Positions 6,221 to 30,090 of a stretch of 64,000 nucleotides of DNA are shown here, piece by piece. The DNA comes from Phenylobacterium sp. (GTDB taxonomy: Bacteria; Pseudomonadota; Alphaproteobacteria; Caulobacterales; Caulobacteraceae): assembly GCF_031360265.1 (NCBI RefSeq), contig NZ_JANMBF010000116.1, forward strand, positions 3,839-67,838. The letters run 5' to 3'. A program made the position numbers and the translations under genes. The first letter of the stretch is position 1, and the number at the start of each line of letters is the position of its first letter. The notes below the pieces were generated by a model. That model was not told the origin of the DNA. It ran no database searches and worked only from the letters and a program-made list of their open reading frames with translations.

Positions 6221-6635
6221 CCCGCCGGCCCCGGCCGCCGCCGCGCGGGCTTGAGCGCCCAGAGGCTGAGCCCGCACCCCAGCGCCGAGGCCGCGCCCAT
6301 GCCGTAGCGTTCGCCCGCCGTCTGGGCGGCGAGGTTGGCGAGCGTGTTCAGCGCCAGTTGCGCCGCCAGGAAGATGTTGAAGATCAGGAACGGCCGGCGC
6401 GGCAGCGCACGCCCCCAGTCGCCGGCGCGGACCTCCATCATCGCCGCGGCCACCAGCAGGTAGACGGCCGCCCCGGCGCTGGTCCACCGCAGCGACGCCG
6501 GCAGCACCGCGCTCGATCCGCCCCAGGCGATCTGGCCATAGGGCGCCCCCAGCGCCAGCATCACTGGAAGAGCGCGAAGGTGCCGCAGAAGATCGCCGCC
6601 CCCCGCGCGGCCCACTGGCCGACCGAGGGCCTCAC
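6217..6635 (-). pseudogene. Small membrane protein gene split by a 1-nt frameshift near 6562 (or assembly error)
   Basis: GTG at 6635 overlaps the upstream stop (GTGA); reads VRPSVGQWAARGAAIFCGTFALFQ-TGA, then MLALGAPYGQIAWGG... continues in another frame. Confidence 0.6.
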
Positions 6636-7333
6636 GTTGCCGATGTCAGGAACGCGTTGATCCAGCCGCCCACCCGGGCGCGATCGTCGGGACCCTGGTA
6701 GCTGGCGATGGCGCGGTCGGCCTGGTCCGGGGTCAGCGGCCCGTCGCGACGGGTCTCGATCAGCTCGATGGCGTAGGCCGGATCGAACTCCGGATGCGGC
6801 TGCATCGAGATCGCCCGGTCGTCGCGGTAGATCAGGCCGGCGAAGGGCGTGAAGGCGCTGGCGGCGAACAGGTCGGCCCCCGGCGGCGCCTCGACCACCT
6901 GGTCCTGGTGCGAGGCCGGCAGGCGGAGGGTGGCCGCCCATGCGTCCATCCACGGCTCGCGGCGCAGCACCTGGTACTCATTCTCGCCGACACCCCAGCC
7001 CTTGGGCGACTTGATCACCTGGCCACCGAACGCCTGGGCCATCAGCTGGTGGCCGAGACACACGCCCACCAGCGCCGCCTGCCCCCTGGCAGCGCGCAGG
7101 AAATCCATCGTCGCGCCGATCCAGGGGTCGGGATCATAGGCGCCGGCCGCCCCGCCAGTGATCAGCCAGGCGTCGCAAGCGGTCGGACTCTCCGGCAGCT
7201 CGCCCTCGTCGACGGCATAGGTCCGGTACTCGTGACGCGGGCCCAGCAAGGCCTGGAACATCTCCGGATAGGTCCCGAACCGCGGGATGCAGGCCCGGGG
7301 CGGCCGTCCGGTCTTGAGGATGCCAAGCTTCAA
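6632..7333 (-). CDS. Type 1 glutamine amidotransferase (GMP-synthase-like)
   Basis: LITGG, GVCLGHQL nucleophile elbow, SHQDQV, QPHPEF; TTG start at 7333 overlaps the upstream stop. Confidence 0.88.
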   Translation of the reverse strand: MKLGILKTGRPPRACIPRFGTYPEMFQALLGPRHEYRTYAVDEGELPESPTACDAWLITGGAAGAYDPDPWIGATMDFLRAARGQAALVGVCLGHQLMAQAFGGQVIKSPKGWGVGENEYQVLRREPWMDAWAATLRLPASHQDQVVEAPPGADLFAASAFTPFAGLIYRDDRAISMQPHPEFDPAYAIELIETRRDGPLTPDQADRAIASYQGPDDRARVGGWINAFLTSAT

Positions 7334-7776
7334 GACTCCGTCTCCCCATCGCCCCTTGCCGTCTCGACGGCGACGAAACCGCGCGCGGAGGCCGACCACG
7401 CCACCTGAACGGTTGCGGTCACGAATAGGAGGAACGCCACCTGAAGGCCAAACGCCGTGTCGGTCCAAAGGTGGAGCGCGGGCGGCTGGAGCAAGACGTC
7501 GCGGAAGATGATCCCATTGTGGAGGACATCCAGCCCGATGATCCCACAGGTCAGGACCAGCCCCACCCGTGGCCACACGAACAGGCAAACGGCGGCGGCC
7601 GGGTCAGCGACCGCAAGCGATGTCCAGAACGCCGCGCTGGCCGGGCCAACGCCGCCGTAGTCCCAGAGAATGCCGTTCTGGATCAATGGAATGACATGCG
7701 TACACGTCGCGACCAGCAGGCATAGGGCGTAGGCGATCCTTATGCGGAGGCCGCAACGATGAATTGGGTTGTGCAT
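7330..7776 (-). CDS. Hypothetical integral membrane protein (about 4 TM)
   Basis: ATG 5 nt after the cca stop, stop overlapping the GATase start; hydrophobic segments; visibly lower GC than its neighbours. Confidence 0.6.
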   Translation of the reverse strand: MHNPIHRCGLRIRIAYALCLLVATCTHVIPLIQNGILWDYGGVGPASAAFWTSLAVADPAAAVCLFVWPRVGLVLTCGIIGLDVLHNGIIFRDVLLQPPALHLWTDTAFGLQVAFLLFVTATVQVAWSASARGFVAVETARGDGETES

Positions 7777-7781
7777 CGCGC

Positions 7782-9032
7782 CTAAAACGCCATGCCCTGC
7801 GCCACCGACTTCAGTTTCTCGATCATCGACAGCTTGTCGTCGAGGAAGTCGTGGTCGATCCACCAGGCCTCGACCTCGGCCAGTACGTGGCCGACCATCG
7901 GCCCCTTTGGCACGCCCGAGGCGATGACGTCGCGGCCGCTGAGCGGGAACGCAGGCGGGGTCCAGCCCTCGCCCAGTGCGATCATCCCGCGCCATTGCGG
8001 CGTGGTGGCGGTGCGCCCGGCGCGCGCCCAGGCGAGCTTGGCGCGGTCGCGGAAGGCCTGCGCGCCCAGGCGATAGAGGTGGCGGCGGATCTCACGCGGG
8101 CTCATCCAGCTCTTGAACACCGGCGTCGGCGCGAGCGCGGCGACGACCCGGTCGCGCGCGGCGTTGGACAGGCGCAGCCGCTCGGCCAGTTGCCCGGCCG
8201 CCACTTGATCGTCAGGCAGCAAGGCCGCCAGCCGCAGCACCGTGTCGGTCTCGAACAGCTGGTCCTCCTCGATGGCCACCATGCCGTTGAAGCGGGCCAG
8301 GTCGAGCGGCGGCGGCAGCAGCTCGCCCAGCACGCCGCAGCCGGCCATCAGGCCGACGGCCTCGCGCGGGTCGGCCGCGGCGAACAGCTTCAGCAGCTCC
8401 CTGGACACCCGCTCGGCCGACAGGGCTTTGAGGTCGCCCTTCAGGGCCGCGCAGGCCGACAGCGCCGCGGCGTCGGGCGGACCCGCGCCGTACCAGGCGC
8501 GGAAACGGAAGAAGCGCAGGATGCGCAAGGCGTCCTCGGCGATGCGCCGCCCGGCCTCGCCGACGAAGACGATGCGGCCGGCCCGCGCGTCGGCGACACC
8601 CTGGCCGGTGGGATCGAGAACGGTCCCGTCACGCCGCGCATAGAGGCTGTTCAGAGTGAAGTCGCGACGCTGGGCGTCCAGCGTCCAATCGTCGGTGAAC
8701 GCCACCACGGCGCGCCGGCCATCGGTGGCGACATCGCGGCGCAGGGTGGTGATCTCATAGGGCCTGGACCCGCTGACCGCCGTCACCGTGCCGTGGTCGA
8801 TTCCCGTGGGCACGGCCTTGAGCCCCGCGGCGCTCAGCGCCTGAGTCACCTGGCCGGGCGTCAGGGTCGTGGCGATGTCGATGTCGTCGATCGGCCGGCC
8901 CAGCAGGGCGTTGCGCACGCAGCCGCCGACGAAGCGGGCGCAGTCGGGGCCGCCGGCGCCCTCCAGCGCGTCCAGCACCGCCGCCGTCGCCGGCGCGGTG
9001 ATCCACGGGCGCTGGCCTAGAGACCCGCTCAT
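7782..9032 (-). CDS. cca: CCA tRNA nucleotidyltransferase
   Basis: FVGGCVRN..DDIDIAT, EITTLRRD, RRDFTLN, EDALRILRFFRF; ATG at 9032 overlaps the upstream stop. Confidence 0.92.
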   Translation of the reverse strand: MSGSLGQRPWITAPATAAVLDALEGAGGPDCARFVGGCVRNALLGRPIDDIDIATTLTPGQVTQALSAAGLKAVPTGIDHGTVTAVSGSRPYEITTLRRDVATDGRRAVVAFTDDWTLDAQRRDFTLNSLYARRDGTVLDPTGQGVADARAGRIVFVGEAGRRIAEDALRILRFFRFRAWYGAGPPDAAALSACAALKGDLKALSAERVSRELLKLFAAADPREAVGLMAGCGVLGELLPPPLDLARFNGMVAIEEDQLFETDTVLRLAALLPDDQVAAGQLAERLRLSNAARDRVVAALAPTPVFKSWMSPREIRRHLYRLGAQAFRDRAKLAWARAGRTATTPQWRGMIALGEGWTPPAFPLSGRDVIASGVPKGPMVGHVLAEVEAWWIDHDFLDDKLSMIEKLKSVAQGMAF

Positions 9033-9313
9033 TTCGCCTTCGGCGCCTCGAAATAGCCCTTGCTGACCGCGCCGTCGGCGGTCACTTCGCCCGGGACGTA
9101 GCGCTCTCCGCGATTGTCCTGGCGCAACAGCACCGTCCCGACCAGCGACAGGCCGACGAGCACCGCGCCGGCGGCCACCAGCCAGGCATAGGGCGTCGAG
9201 CCCATCTCGCGACCCGACCTGCGAGCCCAGGCGCGCCAGAGGAACCACACCGCGAACGGCACGAGCACCAGACTGCCCCGGATGAGCAGGAGCCTAAGCA
9301 ACCGCGGCTCCAT
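9029..9313 (-). CDS. Small membrane protein (DUF6111-like)
   Basis: Two TM helices plus YVPGE..DG tail; usual position upstream of cca in alphaproteobacteria. Confidence 0.65.
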   Translation of the reverse strand: MEPRLLRLLLIRGSLVLVPFAVWFLWRAWARRSGREMGSTPYAWLVAAGAVLVGLSLVGTVLLRQDNRGERYVPGEVTADGAVSKGYFEAPKAK

Positions 9314-9971
9314 AGAGCCGGTCGTAGAGCGCGCGCAGCATCCCGGCCGTGGCGCCCCAGATGAACCGGTCGTCGTGGGTCATGGCGTAGAAGCGGCGCT
9401 TCTCACCCGTCGGAAGCTCGCGCACATGCTCCTCGTGGTTGCGCGGATCCATCAGGAAGCCGAAGGGCGTCTCGAAGATGTCGGCCACCTCGTCGGGATT
9501 GGCGGTGAGGGTGAACCCGGCCCGCACGAAGCCCACCACCGGGGTGATCAGAAAGCCGGTGCCGGTGCGGTAGGGAGTCGAGAGCCCCGCCAGGGAAACG
9601 AAGCTCGGGTGCAGCCCGATCTCTTCCTCGGCCTCGCGCAGCGCCGTCTGCCAGGCGGACTCGCCCGGGTCGCGCCGCCCGCCCGGAAGCGCGATCTGGC
9701 CGGTGTGGCTGCGCAGCGTGTCCGAACGCCGGGTCAGGATCACCGACAGCCCCGCCTGGCGCTGCACCAAGCCGACCAGCACGGCGGCGGGCTTCAGCGG
9801 ATGGGTGTCGGGGGCCTGCCCGGGATTGAGGTCGAAGTCGGACCGGTGCGGGCCAGCCTCCGCCGGCTCGCCCTCTTCCAGGGGATCGAGGTGGCTGGCC
9901 ATCCATCCCTGCAGCTCGTGGGGCCGATCGTGTGGCGGGGCGCCCTGTTTCGCGGCCGGGAGGTCGGTCAC
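9294..9971 (-). CDS. Nudix hydrolase, CoA pyrophosphatase type
   Basis: HTGQIALPGG..ALREAEEEIG Nudix box, IWGATAGML. Confidence 0.9.
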   Translation of the reverse strand: MTDLPAAKQGAPPHDRPHELQGWMASHLDPLEEGEPAEAGPHRSDFDLNPGQAPDTHPLKPAAVLVGLVQRQAGLSVILTRRSDTLRSHTGQIALPGGRRDPGESAWQTALREAEEEIGLHPSFVSLAGLSTPYRTGTGFLITPVVGFVRAGFTLTANPDEVADIFETPFGFLMDPRNHEEHVRELPTGEKRRFYAMTHDDRFIWGATAGMLRALYDRLYGAAVA

Positions 9972-9983
9972 CGGATCCGCGCC

Positions 9984-10574
9984 CTATATCTGGTGAACAT
10001 GGGCCGGTCCCACGGGATACCAGGCGCCATTGGACGCCACGCCCAGCGTCGGGCCGTCGGGCGTCTGGCGTTCCGCCGCCATCTCGACGAGCTCATAGAA
10101 CACCGGCCGGGCGATCAGGGCCTCGAGCCCGCGGCGGACGTGGACATAGGGGCGCGGGGCGCCGTCCTGGCCAACCTCGACGCGGATATAGTTCTCCGGT
10201 CCCGCCTCCACCTCGTCGCCGACATTGGTCAGGAAGCGCAGGGCCGCGCCCACCCGGTCGACCCGCGTGGCGATGAACGGAGCGTCCTCCACGCTGATTT
10301 TCATCTTCTCGACGGGGGTGACCAGATGGAAGCCGTCGGGATCCCTCCGCAGCACCGTGGAGAACAGCCGCACCAGGGCCTCGCGGCCAATCGGCGTCCC
10401 CTCGTGGAACCAGAGGCCGTCCTTGCGAATGACGATGTCGATCTCGCCGCAGTGGGCCGGGTTCCACAGGTGGACCGGCGGCAGGCCCCGGCCCGGCGCC
10501 TGCCCCTTCGCCGCCAGGGATTGGGCCGCCGCCGCGATCCCCTCCAGCCCCGATCTGCCCGCTGCGTCAGCCAT
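9984..10574 (-). CDS. DUF1285 family protein
   Basis: LPPVHLWNP, DGLWFHEGTPIGR, LVTPVEK, VEDAPF; ATG at 10574. Confidence 0.85.
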   Translation of the reverse strand: MADAAGRSGLEGIAAAAQSLAAKGQAPGRGLPPVHLWNPAHCGEIDIVIRKDGLWFHEGTPIGREALVRLFSTVLRRDPDGFHLVTPVEKMKISVEDAPFIATRVDRVGAALRFLTNVGDEVEAGPENYIRVEVGQDGAPRPYVHVRRGLEALIARPVFYELVEMAAERQTPDGPTLGVASNGAWYPVGPAHVHQI

Positions 10575-10606
10575 GCCTGCCAAGGTAGGCGCGCCCGCGG
10601 TTCGCC

Positions 10607-11119
10607 TCAAGCGGCCTGCACGGGTCCGGCCAGATCCTCCGCGTCGGGGGCCAGCGTACGGACCAGGACCCGGCGTGGGTCCACCGGCCCGGGCAGCACC
10701 ACCTGGCCAGCCATCACCCGGACAAACCCCACGCGGGCGAAATAGGCAGCGTCGCCGACCAGCAGCACATGGGTCTCGCCGGCGGCCCGCGCGGCCTGGC
10801 AGGCGCGCGCGATCAAACGCGCCCCGAAGCCGGCGCTGCGCTCGCCCTGTTCCACGGCGAAAGGGCCCAGGAACATCGCCGGCCGATCGCCGACGCGCAC
10901 ATGCCATTGCCGCGCACATCCCAGCAGGCGGCCCGCCTGCCAGGCGCAGATCGACAGCTCCGGCGCGAAGGTGGCGAACTCGCGCACCCGCTCGGAGACC
11001 TTGGTGAAGCGGCCCGGCCCGAACGCGCGGTCGATCAGGGCGTCCACCAGAGGCGCGTCTTCGGCGCATTCGGATTGCAGGATGAGCGCCGGGAGCGGCG
11101 CGGCGGGCTGGACTGTCAT
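10607..11119 (-). CDS. GNAT family N-acetyltransferase
   Basis: DRAFGPGRF, LGPFAV..GERSAGFG, LVGDAAYF. Confidence 0.85.
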   Translation of the reverse strand: MTVQPAAPLPALILQSECAEDAPLVDALIDRAFGPGRFTKVSERVREFATFAPELSICAWQAGRLLGCARQWHVRVGDRPAMFLGPFAVEQGERSAGFGARLIARACQAARAAGETHVLLVGDAAYFARVGFVRVMAGQVVLPGPVDPRRVLVRTLAPDAEDLAGPVQAA

Positions 11120-14490: not shown

Positions 14491-15363
14491 TCAGGTCGTC
14501 GTCGGCCGCAGGTCCAGGCCGGACAAAGCGAGGAACCGATCAAAATAGACGGTGTCGTCCAGGGTGTCGTTCATGCCGATCCACGCCTCGTCGGTCATGC
14601 TGGCGCGCAGGCCGAGGAACGGCTCCGCATCGGGGCCGGAGGGGGTGCGAAACCGGGTGGTCCGGCCTTCGACGATCTCCAGCATGGTCTCGGCGACGAC
14701 CGTGGGCGGCGGTCCGGAGTCCGGCGTGGCGGTGTAGAAGGCGCGCATCCTGCCGCCATGCGGATAGGGACTGCCGGCCTTCGGTTTCGGCAGATTGGCC
14801 AGGGTCATCGGCGTGGCGATGATTCCCGGCTCGACCAGGACAACGCGGACGCCGAAGGCGGACATTTCCGCGGCCAGGGATTCGCTCATCCCTTCGACCG
14901 CGAATTTCGACGCGGCATAGGCGCCTGAGCCGGCGGCCGCGATGCGTCCGGCGATCGATGAGACGTTGATGATCAGGCCGGCGCGGCGGGCGCGCATCGC
15001 GGGCGCGACCGCCTTGATGCAGCGCAGCGCGCCGAAATAGTTGGTGTTCATGACCTCTTGGAACCGGGCCAGGGTCTCATCCTCGACCGCGTCGATGCTG
15101 TAGATGCCGGCGTTGTTGATCAGCACGTCGATACTGTCCGCCGCGCCCGGCCCCGTCGCGAACAGCCTGGCGACAGACGCATCGTCGTCGACATCCAGCT
15201 CGGCGACCGTGATCGGCAGGCCCTCGCGCGCCGCGATCTCGGCAAGGTCGCAGTCCTTAGGCGTTCGCATCGCCGCGACCACGGCGTGCCCGGCCCGCGC
15301 CAGCACCAGGGCGGTTTCCCGGCCGATCCCCTTGCTCGCGCCCGTGATGAGTGTTTTCGCCAT
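14491..15363 (-). CDS. SDR oxidoreductase
   Basis: TGASKGIG, NNAG, YAASK; ATG at 15363. Confidence 0.88.
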   Translation of the reverse strand: MAKTLITGASKGIGRETALVLARAGHAVVAAMRTPKDCDLAEIAAREGLPITVAELDVDDDASVARLFATGPGAADSIDVLINNAGIYSIDAVEDETLARFQEVMNTNYFGALRCIKAVAPAMRARRAGLIINVSSIAGRIAAAGSGAYAASKFAVEGMSESLAAEMSAFGVRVVLVEPGIIATPMTLANLPKPKAGSPYPHGGRMRAFYTATPDSGPPPTVVAETMLEIVEGRTTRFRTPSGPDAEPFLGLRASMTDEAWIGMNDTLDDTVYFDRFLALSGLDLRPTTT

Positions 15364-15455
15364 GCCAGCCTCCCCGATGCCTGCCGCCGATAGGCACACG
15401 CGGCCGCGGCGAGTCAAATCCAGGCGCTGAAGGGATCCGCCGCCGCGGGCGACGC

Positions 15456-20515: not shown

Positions 20516-22315
20516 ATCTCGGATATCTTCATATCCTACAGCCGCGAGGATCAGGCCGTGGCGCGCCTCTACGCCGACGCGCTTGAGGCCCACGGCTTCA
20601 GCGTCTGGTGGGATGCGGCGCTGCGTTCCGGCGAGGCCTTCGACGAGGCGATCGAGACGGCCCTGCGAGCAGCCAAGGCTGTGGTGGTCCTGTGGTCGCC
20701 TCGCTCTGTCACATCGCGCTGGGTGCGCGCGGAGGCCACGCTCGCCGACCGCAACAAGACCCTGGCGCCGGTGATCATCGAGCCGTGCGAACGGCCGATC
20801 ATGTTCGAATTGACCCAGACCGCGGACCTCAGTCACTGGAAGGGCGCGTCCGACGATCCGGCCTGGTTGTCCCTGCTGGACGAGATGCGGCGGTTCGTCG
20901 GCGTCCGCGACGCACCGCGGCCAGCCGTCCCGGCTGCCCCGCCGCACAGGGCGCCGGACGCCCGGCCCTCGATCCTCGTGCTGCCGCTGATCAACATGAG
21001 CGGAGATCCCGAACAGGAGTATTTCAGCGACGGGGTCAGCGAGGACATCATCACCGATCTGGGGCGCGTTTCGGCGCTGTCGGTGGTCTCGCGCACCACC
21101 GCCTTTTCCTACAAGGGCAAGACCATTGCGCCGGGACAGTTGGCGACCGCGCTGGGGATCACCCACATCCTGGAGGGCAGCGTGCGCAAGTCCGGCGCGC
21201 GAATCCGCATCACCGCTCAGTTGTTTGACGCCGTGCGCGACACCCAGTTGTGGGCCGAGCGCTTCGACCGCACCCTGGACGACATCTTCGCCATTCAGGA
21301 AGAGATCTCCCAGGCCATCGTCGGCGCACTGAAGCTGAAGCTGGCGCCGGCGGAACGGCAGGCGATCGAGCAACGGCAGACCGCCAGCGCCGAAGCCTAT
21401 GAACTCTACCTGCTGGCCCGCCAGTTCAGCCGCACCGGCAGCGAGCGCCTGAAGCCGCTGATCGTGCGCATCTGCCAGCGCGCGGTGGCGCTGGACCCCG
21501 ACTTTGGCCAGGCCTGGGCGCAGATCGCCAACGCCGAGGCCGAGGCGTACCAGCGCAACGTCGAGGGCATGAGCTACGAACACGCGCTCCACGCCGCGGA
21601 ACGCGCGGCGGCCGTGTCACCGGACCTGGCCGAAGCCCACGCGGCGATGGCCGAAGTCCTGCTGCGCGGTCCTTTGATGGACTTCGCCGGCGGCGAATCC
21701 TATGTCGCGACGGCGCTCCGCCTCGACCCAGACTGCTACGACGCCCACCTGTGCGCCGGGTATCAGACCCTCGGCCTGAAGCGCTGGGACGATTCGGTGC
21801 GCCATTTTGAGGCCGCCATCGCGCTCGATCCTGTCGCCTTTCGGCCGGCGGGCATGGTCATCCAGGTCTACAAAGCCCTCGGCGACCAGCAGAGTGTCAT
21901 CGCGGCGGCGCGCCGGTGCCTCACGCGCTGCGAAAGGATCCTCGCGACAGAACCAGACCACGGCAGCGCCCTGGGCTTTCTGGTGACCGCTCTGGTCGAA
22001 CTCGGAGATGTGGATCGGGCCCGCGACTGGGTGCGCCGCGCGATGCTGTTCGACCCCGACAACATGCGCCTGCACTACAACCTGGCCTGCGGCCTGGCCG
22101 GCCTCGGCGACGCCGAAGCGGCCTGCGATCTCCTGGACGACATCATCGACAAGGTGTCCGCCAGCTGGCTCTTGTGGATCGAGACAGACAACAGCCTCGA
22201 TCTGATCCGCGACGATCCCCGCTTCATCGCCATCGTGGAGCGCGGCAAGGCCCGGTTCGCCGACAGCGATGCGGACCCGGCGGCCGACGCACCGCCGATG
22301 AATGCCTCAGCATGA
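20516..22315 (+). CDS. TIR domain + TolB-like + TPR protein; apparent start codon ATC
   Basis: GGGAGG-N5-ATC TCG GAT ATC TTC ATA TCC TAC gives (M)SDIFISYSRED; TIR motifs SVWWD, VVVLWS, WVRAEA; LPLINMSGDPEQEYFSDG; C-terminal TPR-like helices. Confidence 0.85.
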   Translation: MSDIFISYSREDQAVARLYADALEAHGFSVWWDAALRSGEAFDEAIETALRAAKAVVVLWSPRSVTSRWVRAEATLADRNKTLAPVIIEPCERPIMFELTQTADLSHWKGASDDPAWLSLLDEMRRFVGVRDAPRPAVPAAPPHRAPDARPSILVLPLINMSGDPEQEYFSDGVSEDIITDLGRVSALSVVSRTTAFSYKGKTIAPGQLATALGITHILEGSVRKSGARIRITAQLFDAVRDTQLWAERFDRTLDDIFAIQEEISQAIVGALKLKLAPAERQAIEQRQTASAEAYELYLLARQFSRTGSERLKPLIVRICQRAVALDPDFGQAWAQIANAEAEAYQRNVEGMSYEHALHAAERAAAVSPDLAEAHAAMAEVLLRGPLMDFAGGESYVATALRLDPDCYDAHLCAGYQTLGLKRWDDSVRHFEAAIALDPVAFRPAGMVIQVYKALGDQQSVIAAARRCLTRCERILATEPDHGSALGFLVTALVELGDVDRARDWVRRAMLFDPDNMRLHYNLACGLAGLGDAEAACDLLDDIIDKVSASWLLWIETDNSLDLIRDDPRFIAIVERGKARFADSDADPAADAPPMNASA

Positions 22316-23427: not shown

Positions 23428-25050
23428 ATGCTCAGACCTCTTGCCTTCGCCGCCGCGCTCGCCGCTTTGGCCGTCGCCGCACCGGGTGCCCCCAGCGCCC
23501 AGGCCCCGGCCCAGACCAGGCCGCTGAGCCCGTTTGCCTCGGGTGCCGAGCAGCAGGCGGCCATGGCGGCCGGCGCCACGACGTCCGAAGACCTGGTCAG
23601 GGCCTATCTGGCGCGGATCGCGGCGATCGACCGGGCCGGGCCGAAGCTGAACAGCGTGCTGGCGCTCAATCCGCACGCGCTCGCCGACGCCCGCAAGCTC
23701 GACGCCGAGCGCCGCGCGGGCCACCTGCGCGGGCCGTTGCACGGCCTGCCGGTGCTGCTGAAGGACAACATCGAGTCCGACGACGGCACGGCGACCACGG
23801 CAGGCTCGCTGGCGATGGTCGACAATGTCACCGGCCGCGACGCGCCGCTGGTGCGCCGGCTGACCGACGCCGGGGCGGTGATCCTAGGCAAGGCCAACCT
23901 GTCGGAATGGGCCAACTTCCGCTCGACCCGCTCCATCAGCGGCTGGACCGGCGTGGCGGGCCTGGTGCGCAACCCCTATTCGCTGGATCGCACCGCCTGC
24001 GGCTCCAGCGCCGGCTCCGGCGCGGCCATCGCCGCGGGCCTGGCGACTCTGGCCATCGGCACCGAGACCGACGGCTCGATTACCTGCCCGGCCGCCGCCA
24101 ACGGGGTGGTCGGCCTGAAACCCACCGTGGGCCTGGTCTCGCGCACCTATGTGGTGCCGATCTCGCCGGAGCAGGACACGCCCGGCCCGATGACCCGCAC
24201 CGTCGCCGACGCCGCGGCCATGCTCACCGCCATCGCCGGCTCCGATCCGCTGGACCCCGCCACCGCCCAGGCCAACGCCCACAAGGCCGACTACCTGGCC
24301 GGCCTGCGGACCGACGCCCTGCGCGGCGTCCGCGTCGGCGTGCTGCGGATGACGCTCGGCCGCTCGCCGCAGACCGACGCGGTGTTCGAGACCGCGCTTG
24401 CCGCCCTGCGCAAGGCCGGCGCCGTGCTGGTCGAGGTCAAGGGGCCGGACGAGGCGGCGCTCGGCCAGATCGGCGGCGCCGAGGGCGAGGCCCTGCGGGT
24501 CGAGTTCAAGGCCTCGCTCAACGCCTATCTGGCGGCCACGCCGGCCAAGGTGAAAACCCGCTCCCTCGACGACCTGATCGCCTTCAACGCCCATGAGCCG
24601 CGCGAGACGCTGCTGTTCGGCCAGGAGATCTTCGAGCAGTCCGCCAAGGTTCCGCCGATCACCGACCCGACCTATCTGGCCGGCCGCGCCAAGGCCCGCA
24701 AACTGGCCCGCGACGCCCTGGACAGGATGCTGGCCGACGACAACGTCGAGGTGCTGGTCGGTCCGTCCACCGGCCCGGCCGCCATCGTCGATCCGATCGA
24801 CGGCAGCCGCAGCCTGGGATCCTATTCGACCCTGCCGGCGGTGTCGGGCTATCCGCACCTGACGGTGCCCATGGGGAACGTCCAGGGCCTGCCGGTGAAC
24901 ATTTCCTTCATCGGCCCGGCCTGGTCGGAAGCCCGGCTGCTGGCGCTGGGCTTCGCCTTCGAACAGGCCACCCACGCCCGCATCGATCCGCGGTTCCTGC
25001 CCAATATCTGGGCGCGCCCGGAATACGCCAGGGTCTTCGATCCGCGATGA
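23428..25050 (+). CDS. Amidase signature family protein, secreted
   Basis: [35 protein letters not shown]. Confidence 0.92.
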
Positions 25051-26535: not shown

Positions 26536-26566
26536 GATTGACAGTCAATCTCCCAAGAGCATATTT
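26536..26566 (+). promoter_or_regulatory. Putative sigma70 promoter with an overlapping palindromic operator
   Basis: GATTGAC-A-GTCAATC perfect inverted repeat at 26536-26550 containing TTGACA; weak -10-like CATATT 16 nt downstream; AT-rich intergenic region. Confidence 0.5.
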
Positions 26567-26684: not shown

Positions 26685-27269
26685 ATGTCAACCAAGGTAC
26701 GTAATCGTCATGATTTCATAGTCAAAGATCTGGTCATCAGCGTTCCTTCAGCGGCGGGAAGCCACGGCGGAACCTTCCTTCCGGCTGACGACGGCACGCT
26801 GCCGCCCTGGTGGATTTCCCCCATCGCTAGTGTTCTGGTGAAGGGAGACATATTAGAAGTTGTGCGAGAGACTGTCCGGCAATCTCTCAAGGACACGGGG
26901 GAGCTGACCTCGATCGGTCGGGCGTTCGCCGGCGACCTCAGCGGCAATCCGGCGATCAGCTCGGCGATCCACGACATTGGCGCCGCGGTCGTCGCCAGCG
27001 CCGCCTACTCCGCCCTGGGCGGCGGGTCTGTCGGCCTGCCCAACCCCGATTGTGGCGGCTCCTCGCTTGAGACCATCCCCACGCCGATCACGCCGATCGT
27101 TCTCGTGGGCCGCGAGGTACATCAGGTGTCCGAGCTTCCCGGCCTGCGGAAACAGCTGGCTGTCGCGGTGGAAGCGCTCGACCGGTTCACAGCCGCCCAG
27201 GCGCCGCGCGACGCCGAGATCGGGGTGGTGCGCACGCAGCTTGAAGGCGCGTTGAAGAGCCTCGGCTGA
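26685..27269 (+). CDS. Hypothetical protein; candidate RiPP precursor-like substrate
   Basis: RBS GGGAGA; N-terminal FIVKDLVISV; two Ser/Thr-Pro motifs; C-terminal amphipathic helices; first gene of a lyase/kinase unit. Confidence 0.75.
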   Translation: MSTKVRNRHDFIVKDLVISVPSAAGSHGGTFLPADDGTLPPWWISPIASVLVKGDILEVVRETVRQSLKDTGELTSIGRAFAGDLSGNPAISSAIHDIGAAVVASAAYSALGGGSVGLPNPDCGGSSLETIPTPITPIVLVGREVHQVSELPGLRKQLAVAVEALDRFTAAQAPRDAEIGVVRTQLEGALKSLG

Positions 27270-27301: not shown

Positions 27302-28045
27302 ATGGGCGGACGGCTCGACGCGCTGTCGCTTCGGGCGATCCGGACCACCGCGGCCCTGCCGTGCTCGGACGCCAGAACCCTTTCGCGGCGGCTCTACGCC
27401 TATGGCGCGGTCCCGCGCGGCCCGACGTTCGATCTGGACTTCGGGCCGGGCGACGATGCGCTGGCTGTGCTCGGCCTGACCTCCGGCGGCGGCGTCCGTG
27501 CGCGGCTGGCGCGGGACTATGACGCAACGACCTATCCCGGCTGGGTGGGGTTCGGGCGGCTGGGTCAAAACGACAGCGCCTCGTCGGCCTTCAAGCTCTA
27601 CGCGAGCCCACGTCCTGAAGCCCTGGCGACGGCCTTCCCGATCCTGGCGCAGGTCTTCGCCGATCTCGAGGTCCGCGCCTTCAAGGTGGGACGCGGTCCA
27701 GCCGGTCTGCTTCGCTGTGACAAGATCGTCGCCTATTTTGACAGCCGGGAACATCTGCGGGTCGTGGCCGCCGCGCTCGCCCGCAAGCTTGCCGGCTGCC
27801 CGGCGCAGGGCGTGCCCTTCACCGCCGCGCTCGGCGCCGACGGACTGCTGTCCTGGGGGATCGACCCCCCGCCGCCGGCCGAAGGACCAGCGCAGAGCTG
27901 GCGATCCTGGATCACCGGCAAGCTGGCCGACGCGATCCTGGCCGTCCGCCGGCCGGACCTCGACCCCGCGGGGCCGGTGCTTGCCCGGATGACGGCCGAC
28001 GGCGTGGTGGACTGGCGGCCGGCGGCAAGCAGGCCGGGGCCCTGA
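27302..28045 (+). CDS. Candidate HopA1/OspF-like phosphoserine/phosphothreonine lyase
   Basis: FKLYASP...AFKVG...LLRCDKIVAYF...GVPFT..L...DP...SW motif order; TGATG coupling to the kinase gene. Confidence 0.6.
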   Translation: MGGRLDALSLRAIRTTAALPCSDARTLSRRLYAYGAVPRGPTFDLDFGPGDDALAVLGLTSGGGVRARLARDYDATTYPGWVGFGRLGQNDSASSAFKLYASPRPEALATAFPILAQVFADLEVRAFKVGRGPAGLLRCDKIVAYFDSREHLRVVAAALARKLAGCPAQGVPFTAALGADGLLSWGIDPPPPAEGPAQSWRSWITGKLADAILAVRRPDLDPAGPVLARMTADGVVDWRPAASRPGP

Positions 28046-30090
28046 TGAGCGCGCCCGCCCCCGGCCTCGGCGACATCCTCTTCACGCTTCCCGCCGATGC
28101 TCGTCTGGTGCCGGTTCGCGAGCTCTCGCCGCGCCTGCAGGCCCGGATCGGACCCGTCGATCCTGGGCAGGTGGTGGTCAGCCGGCCGGGCTTTCGCGTG
28201 ACCACCCGGCTGGTGACTCCCGAACTCGCGCGCCTGATGGCCGAGTTTCGCGCGCCCCGGCGTCTTGTGGACGCGGTGCTGCGGTTCAGCCGGGATGAGG
28301 CGCGCGATCCGTTCGCCACGCTCGACGACGCCTTCGGGGCCCTGGCGACCCTGATCGACGGGCGGGTTCTGGTCCCGGCGGATTCGCCGGAGGCCCAGGG
28401 TCTGCCGCCCAGCCTGGCGGCAGGCCAGGCGCTTGCCGGCTATGAGGTGGAGGCCCTGGTGCAGGCGCTGGAGGACAGCGAAGTCTATCGCGCCCTGTCG
28501 GCGCGGGGTCAGCCGGTGGCGCTGAAGGTCGCGCGCGCCGGCGCGCGTTCGGCGCTGGCGCATGAAGCCCGGGTGCTCGCGCATCTGGGCGGCGGCGACA
28601 CGCCGCGGCTGATCGAGGCGGGTGAGGCCGGCGGGCGGCCGTTCCTGGCGATGGCGTGGCGGCCGGGCGTGTCGGTGGCGTTCGCGGCCCAGCGGATGCG
28701 GGCCTCTGGAGACAGGCCGCGCGCGCGGCGGATGGTGGCCGCCCTCCTCGCCGCCTACGGTCGGTTGCATGCCAAGGGCGTCATCCACGGCGACATTCAC
28801 CCGGGCAACATCCTGATCGACGAGGCGGGACGGGTGACCCTGCTCGATTTCGGCCGGGCCCGGCTCGACGCGGCGGAAGGCGCCGATCCCGCGCGGGCGG
28901 GGATCGCCCACTTCTATGAGCCGGAGATGGCGCGGGCCTTGTTGGTCGGGCAGACGCCGCCGGCGTCGACCGCCCGATCCGAGCAATATGCCCTGGCCTC
29001 GCTCGGCTATTTCCTGCTGACCGGCCTGCATCCCGTCGATCCCTCGGCGGAACATCGGGAGCTGCTGGCAAGGATCGTCACGCGGCCGCCACTGCCGTTC
29101 ACAGCGCGCGGCGTGGCCGCCTGGCCGGGGGTGGAGCGGGTGCTGGCGACAGCGCTGTCGAAAGACCCGGCGGAGCGTTTCCCCGACGTTGGCGCGTTCG
29201 CCGCCGCCTTCGCCGCGGCGCCGCCCGCCCGACCTTGGCCGCGCGCGCCCCTGGCCGCGGCAAACCTGCTGGAAGCGGCGCTCGAGCGTGTGCTGCGCGG
29301 GTGGCAGGTCGAGACGTCCGTTGATGCCTTGCCGTTGGCCTGGCTTGCCCTGCGCGCGGCGCTTGGCCGCGGCGACGGTGACCTGCTGGCCGCCGCCGAC
29401 CTGTGGGCGAGCCGCGCCGGCCCGGGCTGGACCGCGGCCGCCGTCCGCGCCGAGGTCGCCCGCGCCCGCTGCGACAGCGCCGCCGAGACCGAGGCGATCA
29501 CCGCCTTCATGGCCGCGGCGGATCGGGCGGACGGACCCGCCCCCCTGCTGGCGGCGGCACGGCTGTTGGACGGCGGCGCCTATCGGGAGGCAGACGCCGC
29601 ACCGCTGGCGGGCTGGGCCGTCCGGCGGCTTGACCGGCTGCGGGCGGCCGATCCCGCGCCGGCGACCCTGGCCCAGGCGACGCTGGCGCTCAGTCAGGCC
29701 GGCGTCGCACCCTTGCCAGACGGACTGTGCGCGCAATTGGACGCCTTGCCGCGGGCGGCCGGAGACGTCTGGCTGTGGGGGCTCGCCCACGGCGCCTTCG
29801 CCGAGCCGCGCTATGCCGAGCGCGCGCTCGAGGCGGCGCGTCGGACGCGCGACGGGCTGGCGCGATTGCGGGCCTACCAGCTGACCGGCGACCGGCGCAG
29901 TTACGCCGCCGCGCGGCGCGGCGCCTATGCCGCCGCCCGGCGAGCGCCAGCGGCGGATGATCCGGGGATCCTGGAAACGGCTTTGCTGCTGCTGGAGCTG
30001 GTAGCCCCACAGCGGGTCATCAGGCCGCCGTTCGAACTCTGGATCGGGAGGCCCCTCGTCCCGCCTACCGCCCCGCCGGCATGTCCTTGA
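28045..30090 (+). CDS. RRE-like domain + Ser/Thr kinase + degenerate LanC-like domain fusion
   Basis: VALK (K161), E174, HGDIHPGN, DFG, YEPE, DPAERF; C-terminal WGLAH..EPRY and LRAYQLTGD resemble LanC barrel helices, but no WCxG/CHG. Confidence 0.8.
   Translation: MSAPAPGLGDILFTLPADARLVPVRELSPRLQARIGPVDPGQVVVSRPGFRVTTRLVTPELARLMAEFRAPRRLVDAVLRFSRDEARDPFATLDDAFGALATLIDGRVLVPADSPEAQGLPPSLAAGQALAGYEVEALVQALEDSEVYRALSARGQPVALKVARAGARSALAHEARVLAHLGGGDTPRLIEAGEAGGRPFLAMAWRPGVSVAFAAQRMRASGDRPRARRMVAALLAAYGRLHAKGVIHGDIHPGNILIDEAGRVTLLDFGRARLDAAEGADPARAGIAHFYEPEMARALLVGQTPPASTARSEQYALASLGYFLLTGLHPVDPSAEHRELLARIVTRPPLPFTARGVAAWPGVERVLATALSKDPAERFPDVGAFAAAFAAAPPARPWPRAPLAAANLLEAALERVLRGWQVETSVDALPLAWLALRAALGRGDGDLLAAADLWASRAGPGWTAAAVRAEVARARCDSAAETEAITAFMAAADRADGPAPLLAAARLLDGGAYREADAAPLAGWAVRRLDRLRAADPAPATLAQATLALSQAGVAPLPDGLCAQLDALPRAAGDVWLWGLAHGAFAEPRYAERALEAARRTRDGLARLRAYQLTGDRRSYAAARRGAYAAARRAPAADDPGILETALLLLELVAPQRVIRPPFELWIGRPLVPPTAPPACP

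Follow-up and report, generated by a model that had tools for sequence, protein, structure and literature searches.

A three-gene cassette in Phenylobacterium encodes a putative two-core protein substrate, a stand-alone lyase-fold protein and a kinase joined to a LanC remnant

Results

Reading frame and expression signals of gene A

The DNA analysed here, referred to throughout as the window, is a stretch of 64,000 nt with a G+C content of approximately 70%. Gene A lies at 26685–27269 on the + strand and encodes a 194-aa two-core putative substrate protein, the sequence of which agrees with that quoted in the preliminary description of the region. A Shine-Dalgarno site (GGGAGA) is located 5 nt upstream of the ATG. 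The G+C content at the three codon positions (0.68, 0.51 and 0.75) is coding-like, with GC3 below that of the neighbouring genes. A large protein collection yielded 334 homologues of approximately 192 aa, 55–97% identical to A, and all those that bear names are annotated as hypothetical. The Shine-Dalgarno site, the conserved homologues and the coding GC pattern show that gene A is a genuine gene. The AT-rich gap upstream of it contains a candidate sigma70-like promoter, TTGACA-16-CATATT, at 26538–26565 (+), identified purely as a consensus match with 10 of 12 positions matching (one found, 0.1 expected).

The genome annotation seems to give A in shortened form. The annotated protein is a 135-aa form (P0007) with 99% identity over 70% of the query, and the gene caller was probably misled by the GC3-poor 5′ part of the gene. 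We favour the long, 194-aa form because its N-terminus is conserved among the homologues. Scans against Pfam, NCBIfam and PADLOC assigned A to no significant family, and no signal peptide was found in the protein.

Organisation of protein A

Protein A begins with the motif DFIVKDLVISV at aa 10–20 (26712–26744, +), a candidate leader-like recognition element with the lowest entropy in the protein (0.63). The resemblance of this segment to a leader motif had been pointed out from the sequence of A, and the motif is real: its family-wide form is F-x-[VI]-x-D-L(-M-I-N-V), in which the F, D and L are invariant in 29 distant representatives, and no other element of the family is as well conserved. 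F11, D15 and L16 of A correspond to F4, D8 and L9 in A6. Its likeness to the FxLD leaders of class I lanthipeptides is a loose one, as the spacing from F to D-L differs in A.

The remainder of the protein consists of two core-like repeats and two helical parts. Repeat 1 (aa 27–53, 26763–26843, +), GGTFLPADDGTLPPWWIS45-P46-IASVLV, contains no Cys and carries an invariant S-P anchor. It is followed by a helical spacer (aa 54–111, 26844–27017, +) and by repeat 2 (aa 112–141, 27018–27107, +), GGGSVGLPNPDC123GGSS127LET130IPTPIT136-P137-IVLV, which contains an invariant Cys and has an entropy of 0.69. A C-terminal helical hairpin (aa 142–194, 27108–27266, +; LPxLRKQL ... LEGALKSL), conserved family-wide, completes the protein. 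Alignment of first-half and second-half profiles with hhalign paired aa 27–51 with aa 113–142 (P=5.4e-5), GGTFLPADD..LPPWWISPIASVL being aligned with GGSVGLPNPDCGGSSLETIPTPITPIVLV. The degenerate internal duplication that had been proposed is thus borne out, and it is obvious in distant homologues from Acidobacteriota and Myxococcota, where two plain copies are present (CSEDVSATxPTPITP and CGGSSLETIPTPITP). C123 is the only Cys in A, as had been noted, and is invariant among the homologues; exactly one Cys is present in 137 of 145 of them.

An AlphaFold2 model of A, built from a 39-sequence alignment (mean pLDDT 60), contains predicted helices at residues 46–111 (pLDDT 74–79) and 138–192 (pLDDT 74–88), in agreement with the helical spacer and C-terminal helices of the preliminary description. 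Confidence falls below 50 for residues 1–34 and 108–148. A PDB fold search with this low-confidence model gave no match (best E=1.6).

Conservation of A in close and distant homologues

Among close homologues, entropy is 0.63 for aa 10–20 and 0.69 for aa 112–141, and approximately 1.3 for the helices. The best-conserved stretches of A are therefore those in which AlphaFold2 confidence is low. The two core-like segments that had been described between the helical parts are conserved and are predicted to be unstructured; a shallow alignment (39 sequences), rather than disorder, could account for their low pLDDT.

When 1.84 billion cluster representatives were searched exhaustively with a profile, only 60 members of the A family were recovered, 37 of them at E<=1e-10. 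Across the family the N motif, the helical layout and two [ST]-P anchors, which in the window are S45-P46 and T136-P137, stay fixed. The sequence preceding each anchor is variable and switches between core types with zero to two Cys each. One core type is LPxPDCGGTSxETIPTPITP; two others, LC[TS]xDMPTCxxNxxISP and LCxxDQPTxxxCGxxSP, contain two Cys and are very lanthipeptide-like; a further type is Cys-free and rich in Pro and Thr. Cys-free family members are P0291, P0296 and P0297, the last of which carries three repeats (DxxFPPWVTP) instead of two. The expectation that homologues would have conserved termini and hypervariable cores consequently holds in part for the family as a whole, where a conserved leader-like motif is combined with variable cores, and fails for close homologues (50–75% identity), in which the cores are the most conserved segments.

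Gene B encodes a stand-alone lyase-fold protein

Gene B (27302–28045, +) begins 32 nt downstream of A and encodes a 247-aa protein that we describe as a stand-alone phospho-Ser/Thr lyase with the HopA1/LanY/LanKC-N fold. Pfam, NCBIfam and PADLOC gave no significant family for B itself, and Pfam searches of 24 members of the B family returned weak RamC_N or HopA1 matches for three. A PDB sequence search with a B profile produced only chance matches, and a fold search was needed to place the protein. The predicted structure of B has a pLDDT of 89.5 and a pTM of 0.87, and all of the top 29 PDB fold matches are phospho-Ser/Thr lyases. The best is chain B of LxmKY (class V, E=4e-7); the others include HopA1, OspF, SpvC and VirA, together with SalKC, ThurKC and PneKC of class III and CuvL of class IV, these four being matched through their lyase domains.

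K98, Y100, K128, R138, D140, K141, D188 and R201 are invariant in B. The lyase residues of SpvC are K104, K136, R148, D201 and R213, and those of ThurKC are K65, K94, K117, D152 and R163 (PMC10604976). B residues K98, K128, R138/K141, D188 and R201 are spaced like these, the mapping being one of spacing and not of superposition. An invariant Tyr (K-L-Y) in B replaces the His that acts as catalytic acid in SpvC and ThurKC.

Gene C combines a kinase with a LanC remnant

Gene C (28045–30090, +) encodes 681 aa, and its start overlaps the stop codon of B by 1 nt (TGATG). Its N-terminal 130 residues (28045–28434) form a conserved domain of unassigned fold, a candidate substrate-binding module. No RRE or PqqD match to this domain was found in Pfam or in PDB sequence profile searches, and weak matches to FAT domains in Pfam and PDB profiles were taken as chance. 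The B proteins of distant relatives are extended at the N-terminus by approximately 130 aa that resemble the N-domain of C (hhalign P=8e-5), and this sequence resemblance suggests that the two may represent a shared docking module.

Residues ~131–400 of C (28435–29244) are a Hanks-type Ser/Thr kinase in which K161, E174, HGD250IHPGN255 and D268FG are all invariant; PDB sequence matches of the kinase are to PknB-type kinases. The best NCBIfam match of C is to the kinase region of class IV LanL (E=1.3e-24), with a score of 86.6 bits that lies far below the cut-off of 650, as do those of its relatives at 117–173 bits. The PADLOC defence models PD-T4-6 and MADS6 also match C, over aa ~126–395 only, which is the generic kinase domain. 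Identity with these defence kinases was rejected, because the likeness is confined to the kinase domain and the flanking genes are variable and mostly not defence genes.

The C-terminal part of C (aa ~401–681, 29245–30090) is a LanC-like cyclase remnant that lacks the HG, WCxG and C(C/H)G segments. Pfam LANC_like did not match the window's C, whose last 280 residues are without a Pfam match. Distant relatives of C have a longer aligned C-terminal region with the LanC motifs LAHGWAG, GWCSGSAG and CCG. Those at L014, L034, L036, L046 and L047 score above the Pfam LANC_like threshold (2e-17 to 5e-26), and L014, L034 and L036 match the LanL model over kinase plus cyclase (1e-34 to 1e-51). A zinc-ligand LanC domain with the HG motif is present in these five loci and in L048, and absent from the window. 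The LanC-intact relative at L048:6708–8741 has C-Y-G in place of the C-C-G or C-H-G zinc-ligand motif. The C-terminal domain of the window type is homologous to the LanC domains of the relatives (hhalign Prob 99.2, E=8e-20), and with a length of approximately 280 aa it has lost all three motif-bearing catalytic segments together with about 100 residues. When the window domain was aligned directly by hhalign with a single class I LanC, that of L006, no match resulted (Prob 0.1); the LanC homology is visible only through the intermediate relatives.

The suggestion that the scarcity of Cys in A matches the loss of the cyclase motifs did not hold up cleanly. L014, L046 and L048, with intact LanC motifs, also have a single core Cys. 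Cys count in A does not cleanly follow LanC integrity, LanC-intact loci having one to three Cys and reduced loci having one. Among the LanC-intact loci, L036 and L047 are examples with two-Cys cores.

Distribution and genomic context of the cassette

A scan of one genome per species identified 30 loci in at least seven phyla, with the taxa Alpha-, Beta- and Gammaproteobacteria, Acidobacteriota, Chloroflexota, Actinomycetota, Verrucomicrobiota, Gemmatimonadota and Myxococcota represented. All 30 have A, B and C tightly packed in that order. The cassette has no space for another precursor ORF. The same order was seen in further assembly contigs found by identity and, as far as the contigs reach, in metagenome contigs of distant relatives. 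The proposed tie between A and kinase and lyase genes therefore proved strict: A is the first gene of the unit wherever the contig reaches. Sphingomonas parva 17J27-24 and Roseomonas alba HJA6 are among the carriers that can be cultivated. The cassette is rare: it was not found in 40 relatives, 24 of them congeners, or in 400 other genomes sampled across the class, and no A homologues were found in phage and plasmid collections. Database names of the three proteins are limited to 'hypothetical protein', 'serine/threonine protein kinase' and 'AarF/UbiB family protein', and no description of the A-B-C unit was found in the databases or full-text literature searched.

The flanks of the cassette differ everywhere and include alaS, the gene for ribosomal protein S1, IS elements, group II introns and toxin-antitoxin genes. 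No protease or transporter was recurrently linked to it across the loci examined. Some copies are flanked by group II intron reverse transcriptases and IS transposases (L039:6014–9315; L040:5160–6643 and 14571–15440), which fits with mobility of the region. In the window, a TIR-TPR protein is encoded at 20558–22315 (+), approximately 4 kb upstream of the cassette and outside the conserved unit; it matches Pfam TIR_2 (2.5e-18) and, weakly, Thoeris/Aga TIR models in PADLOC. Upstream of the cassette, the window (23428–25050) and L038 (6351–7766) each have an amidase gene; the A protein of L038 is 64% identical to that of the window, and the shared neighbour is a hint that synteny is partly kept among the nearest relatives. 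In the metagenome contig L006, genes for a class I LanB (PF04738/PF14028) and a LanC (PF05147) are found at 6481–10839 on the – strand, 1 kb downstream of the cassette and on the opposite strand to it. The A protein of L005 is identical to that of L006, and its context is different. Two copies appear to be decaying: that of a Rhodobacterales MAG (L010:1604–2359) has an in-frame stop in B, and that of Paracoccus sp. DMF-8 (L026:6989–10995) has several frameshifts in B and C.

A reduced form of the cassette

We classed cassettes as reduced when B is without the N-terminal extension and the LanC motifs are lost. In a maximum-likelihood tree of the lyase core all reduced cassettes form one clade (support 100/99), sister to L014, which retains both the extension and the motifs. 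Phyla are intermixed on short branches within this clade, indicating horizontal spread. The window's copy was left out of the tree; it presumably belongs to the reduced clade, judging by the approximately 60% identity of its A, B and C proteins to those of the Phenylobacterium locus L007. The three ORFs are intact and conserved in the reduced clade, Cys123 included, and the reduced system is therefore still under selection.

Discussion

A proposed pathway for the modification of A

We consider it probable, though well short of certain, that the next two genes encode a split, class-IV-like lanthionine synthetase and that A is the protein substrate dedicated to it. The analysis shows how the genes are linked, that B has a lyase fold, that C keeps the catalytic residues of a kinase and has LanC ancestry, and that A contains a repeat and is conserved in the pattern described; the chemistry at each step, and what becomes of the product, we infer. 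The N motif F-x-V-x-D-L, perhaps together with the helical parts, would dock A onto the enzymes. The Hanks kinase of C would then phosphorylate Ser and Thr residues in the two core loops, which are predicted to be unstructured; S45 and T136, at the family-wide [ST]-P anchors, are candidate phosphosites, as are S127 and T130. Lyase B, a separate protein, would remove the phosphate to give dehydroalanine or dehydrobutyrine, and in repeat 2 Cys123 could add to a dehydro residue to form a thioether. A zinc LanC domain would catalyse this last step in relatives of the ancestral type, and in the reduced clade of the window the LanC remnant would at most guide it, or it might be spontaneous. The product is probably an intact, intracellular modified protein. 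We favour this fate because no protease or exporter is linked to the cassette and because the helical parts are conserved; the lack of such linkage fits with a modified protein rather than an exported peptide.

Several observations count against this reading. The LanC domain of the window is gutted and the His of B is replaced by Tyr. Unlike typical RiPP cores, those of A are strongly conserved in close homologues, and Cys123 is N-terminal to the candidate Ser and Thr residues, which is the less common ring direction. Since some family members are Cys-free, a thioether cannot be the universal outcome. The most specific form of our proposal is that the cassette makes a 'lanthiprotein', an intact helical protein of approximately 190 aa with two dehydrated loops, the second of them stapled by a thioether through the action of the split synthetase. 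We put this forward tentatively, as a possibility against which the balance still tilts.

Other readings of the cassette

A could instead be a conventional, if very long, RiPP precursor, from which, once it is modified, one or two lanthipeptide-like peptides would be cut by housekeeping proteases and exported by unlinked transporters. The N motif is leader-like and conserved, core types vary across the family, and individual loci adjoin genes that would suit such a pathway, namely the class I LanB and LanC genes of L006 and an S49 peptidase gene next to L037. No protease or transporter beside the cassette is conserved in any locus examined, however, and A is without a signal peptide. Moreover, the helices, including the hairpin that follows core 2, are conserved family-wide, and a scaffold that is to be discarded needs none of this conservation. 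We therefore regard cleavage to small peptides as unlikely. The genomic setting raises a different question, namely whether A might be a regulator, pseudosubstrate or scaffold for a kinase-lyase pair that irreversibly 'eliminylates' other proteins of host or phage, as in an anti-phage or stress module. The cassette is patchy, horizontally spread and self-contained, and some of its neighbours are of mobile or defence type (the TIR-TPR gene of the window, PIN/MazE, Fic and integrase genes at L005, and group II intron reverse transcriptases adjoining L039). The kinase matches the PD-T4-6 and MADS6 models, and OspF and SpvC lyases do target foreign kinases. Yet the PADLOC matches span the generic kinase domain alone, many flanks are housekeeping genes such as alaS and that for S1, and searches of the phage and plasmid collections found no copy. 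A itself is indicated as the modified protein by the LanC ancestry and by its Cys/Ser/Thr cores, whose type changes together with the family, and we find a regulatory role distinctly unlikely.

For the reduced clade it could also be argued that phosphorylation alone survives, with A as a phosphoprotein partner of the kinase and with B and the LanC remnant non-catalytic. The presence of Tyr in B where the K-x-H motif has His and the deletion of the LanC motifs would be explained in this way. The invariance of K98, K128, R138, D188 and R201 of B and of Cys123 of A throughout a clade that spans several phyla argues instead for retained chemistry, and makes the loss of everything beyond phosphorylation very improbable.

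Relationship to known lanthionine synthetases

The closest published kinds of system are lanthipeptide classes III, IV and V, each of which departs from the cassette in at least one defining feature. Class IV LanL enzymes such as VenL and CuvL share with it the OspF/SpvC-type lyase, the Hanks kinase and a substrate gene placed first. They also have the zinc-ligand LanC cyclase that is found in ancestral-type relatives, whereas the window has a ligand-free remnant. LanL fuses lyase, kinase and cyclase in one protein; here the lyase is separate (27302–28045), and C is without a lyase domain and has the additional 130-aa N-domain in its place. A class IV precursor is a short peptide made up of a leader and one core rich in Cys, Ser and Thr, in contrast to the 194 aa, two cores and helical spacers of A, and the cassette differs further in having no protease or exporter.

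Class III LanKC enzymes (ThurKC, CurKC) have the same lyase fold, a cyclase that is without zinc ligands, as in the window's clade, and a mode of substrate recognition that does not involve a classical RRE, a domain for which the sequence searches with the N-domain of C likewise found no match. They are single polypeptides with a full-size cyclase, whereas the enzyme described here is split and its cyclase is a remnant of approximately 280 aa with deletions. Class III substrates are short, with the labionin motif S-x-x-S-x-x-x-C and a helical leader of the ILELQ type. Neither is present in A, whose only Cys lies upstream of the Ser and Thr residues, so that the class III motif is absent. Class V (LanK/LanY/LanX, as in LxmK-LxmY of lexapeptide) resembles the cassette in its stand-alone HopA1-like lyase and separate kinase. 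Class V uses an APH-type kinase (PF01636) and a LanX cyclase unrelated to LanC, in contrast to the Hanks kinase fused to a LanC-derived domain in C; no third, LanX-like enzyme gene was found in the cassette at the loci examined.

Outside the lanthipeptides, the effectors OspF, SpvC and HopA1 and the eukaryotic LanCL proteins share with the proposed pathway the elimination of phosphate or the addition of thiols on folded proteins. Their targets are host kinases or the proteome at large, and they lack a co-encoded, dedicated substrate gene. Two further candidates were considered and found to be different from the A-B-C unit: the archaeal BLES03 and stand-alone lyase clusters (PMC4159009), and 'Class VI', which is the streptococcal LanKCb family.

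Significance

Lanthionine synthetases are known for making short secreted peptides. A dedicated, protein-sized and conserved substrate with two cores would carry lanthionine chemistry into the maturation of whole proteins, by means of an enzyme split of a sort undescribed for classes I–VI. The family is small, with 60 representatives, and extends over at least seven phyla; as a system of three genes it is both untouched and easily testable. A successful lineage within it has dropped the zinc cyclase site yet retained the Cys. If the cassette does produce a lanthiprotein, RiPP chemistry would have been recruited for the site-specific maturation of a cellular protein, and the widespread reduced clade would achieve this without any zinc cyclase site.
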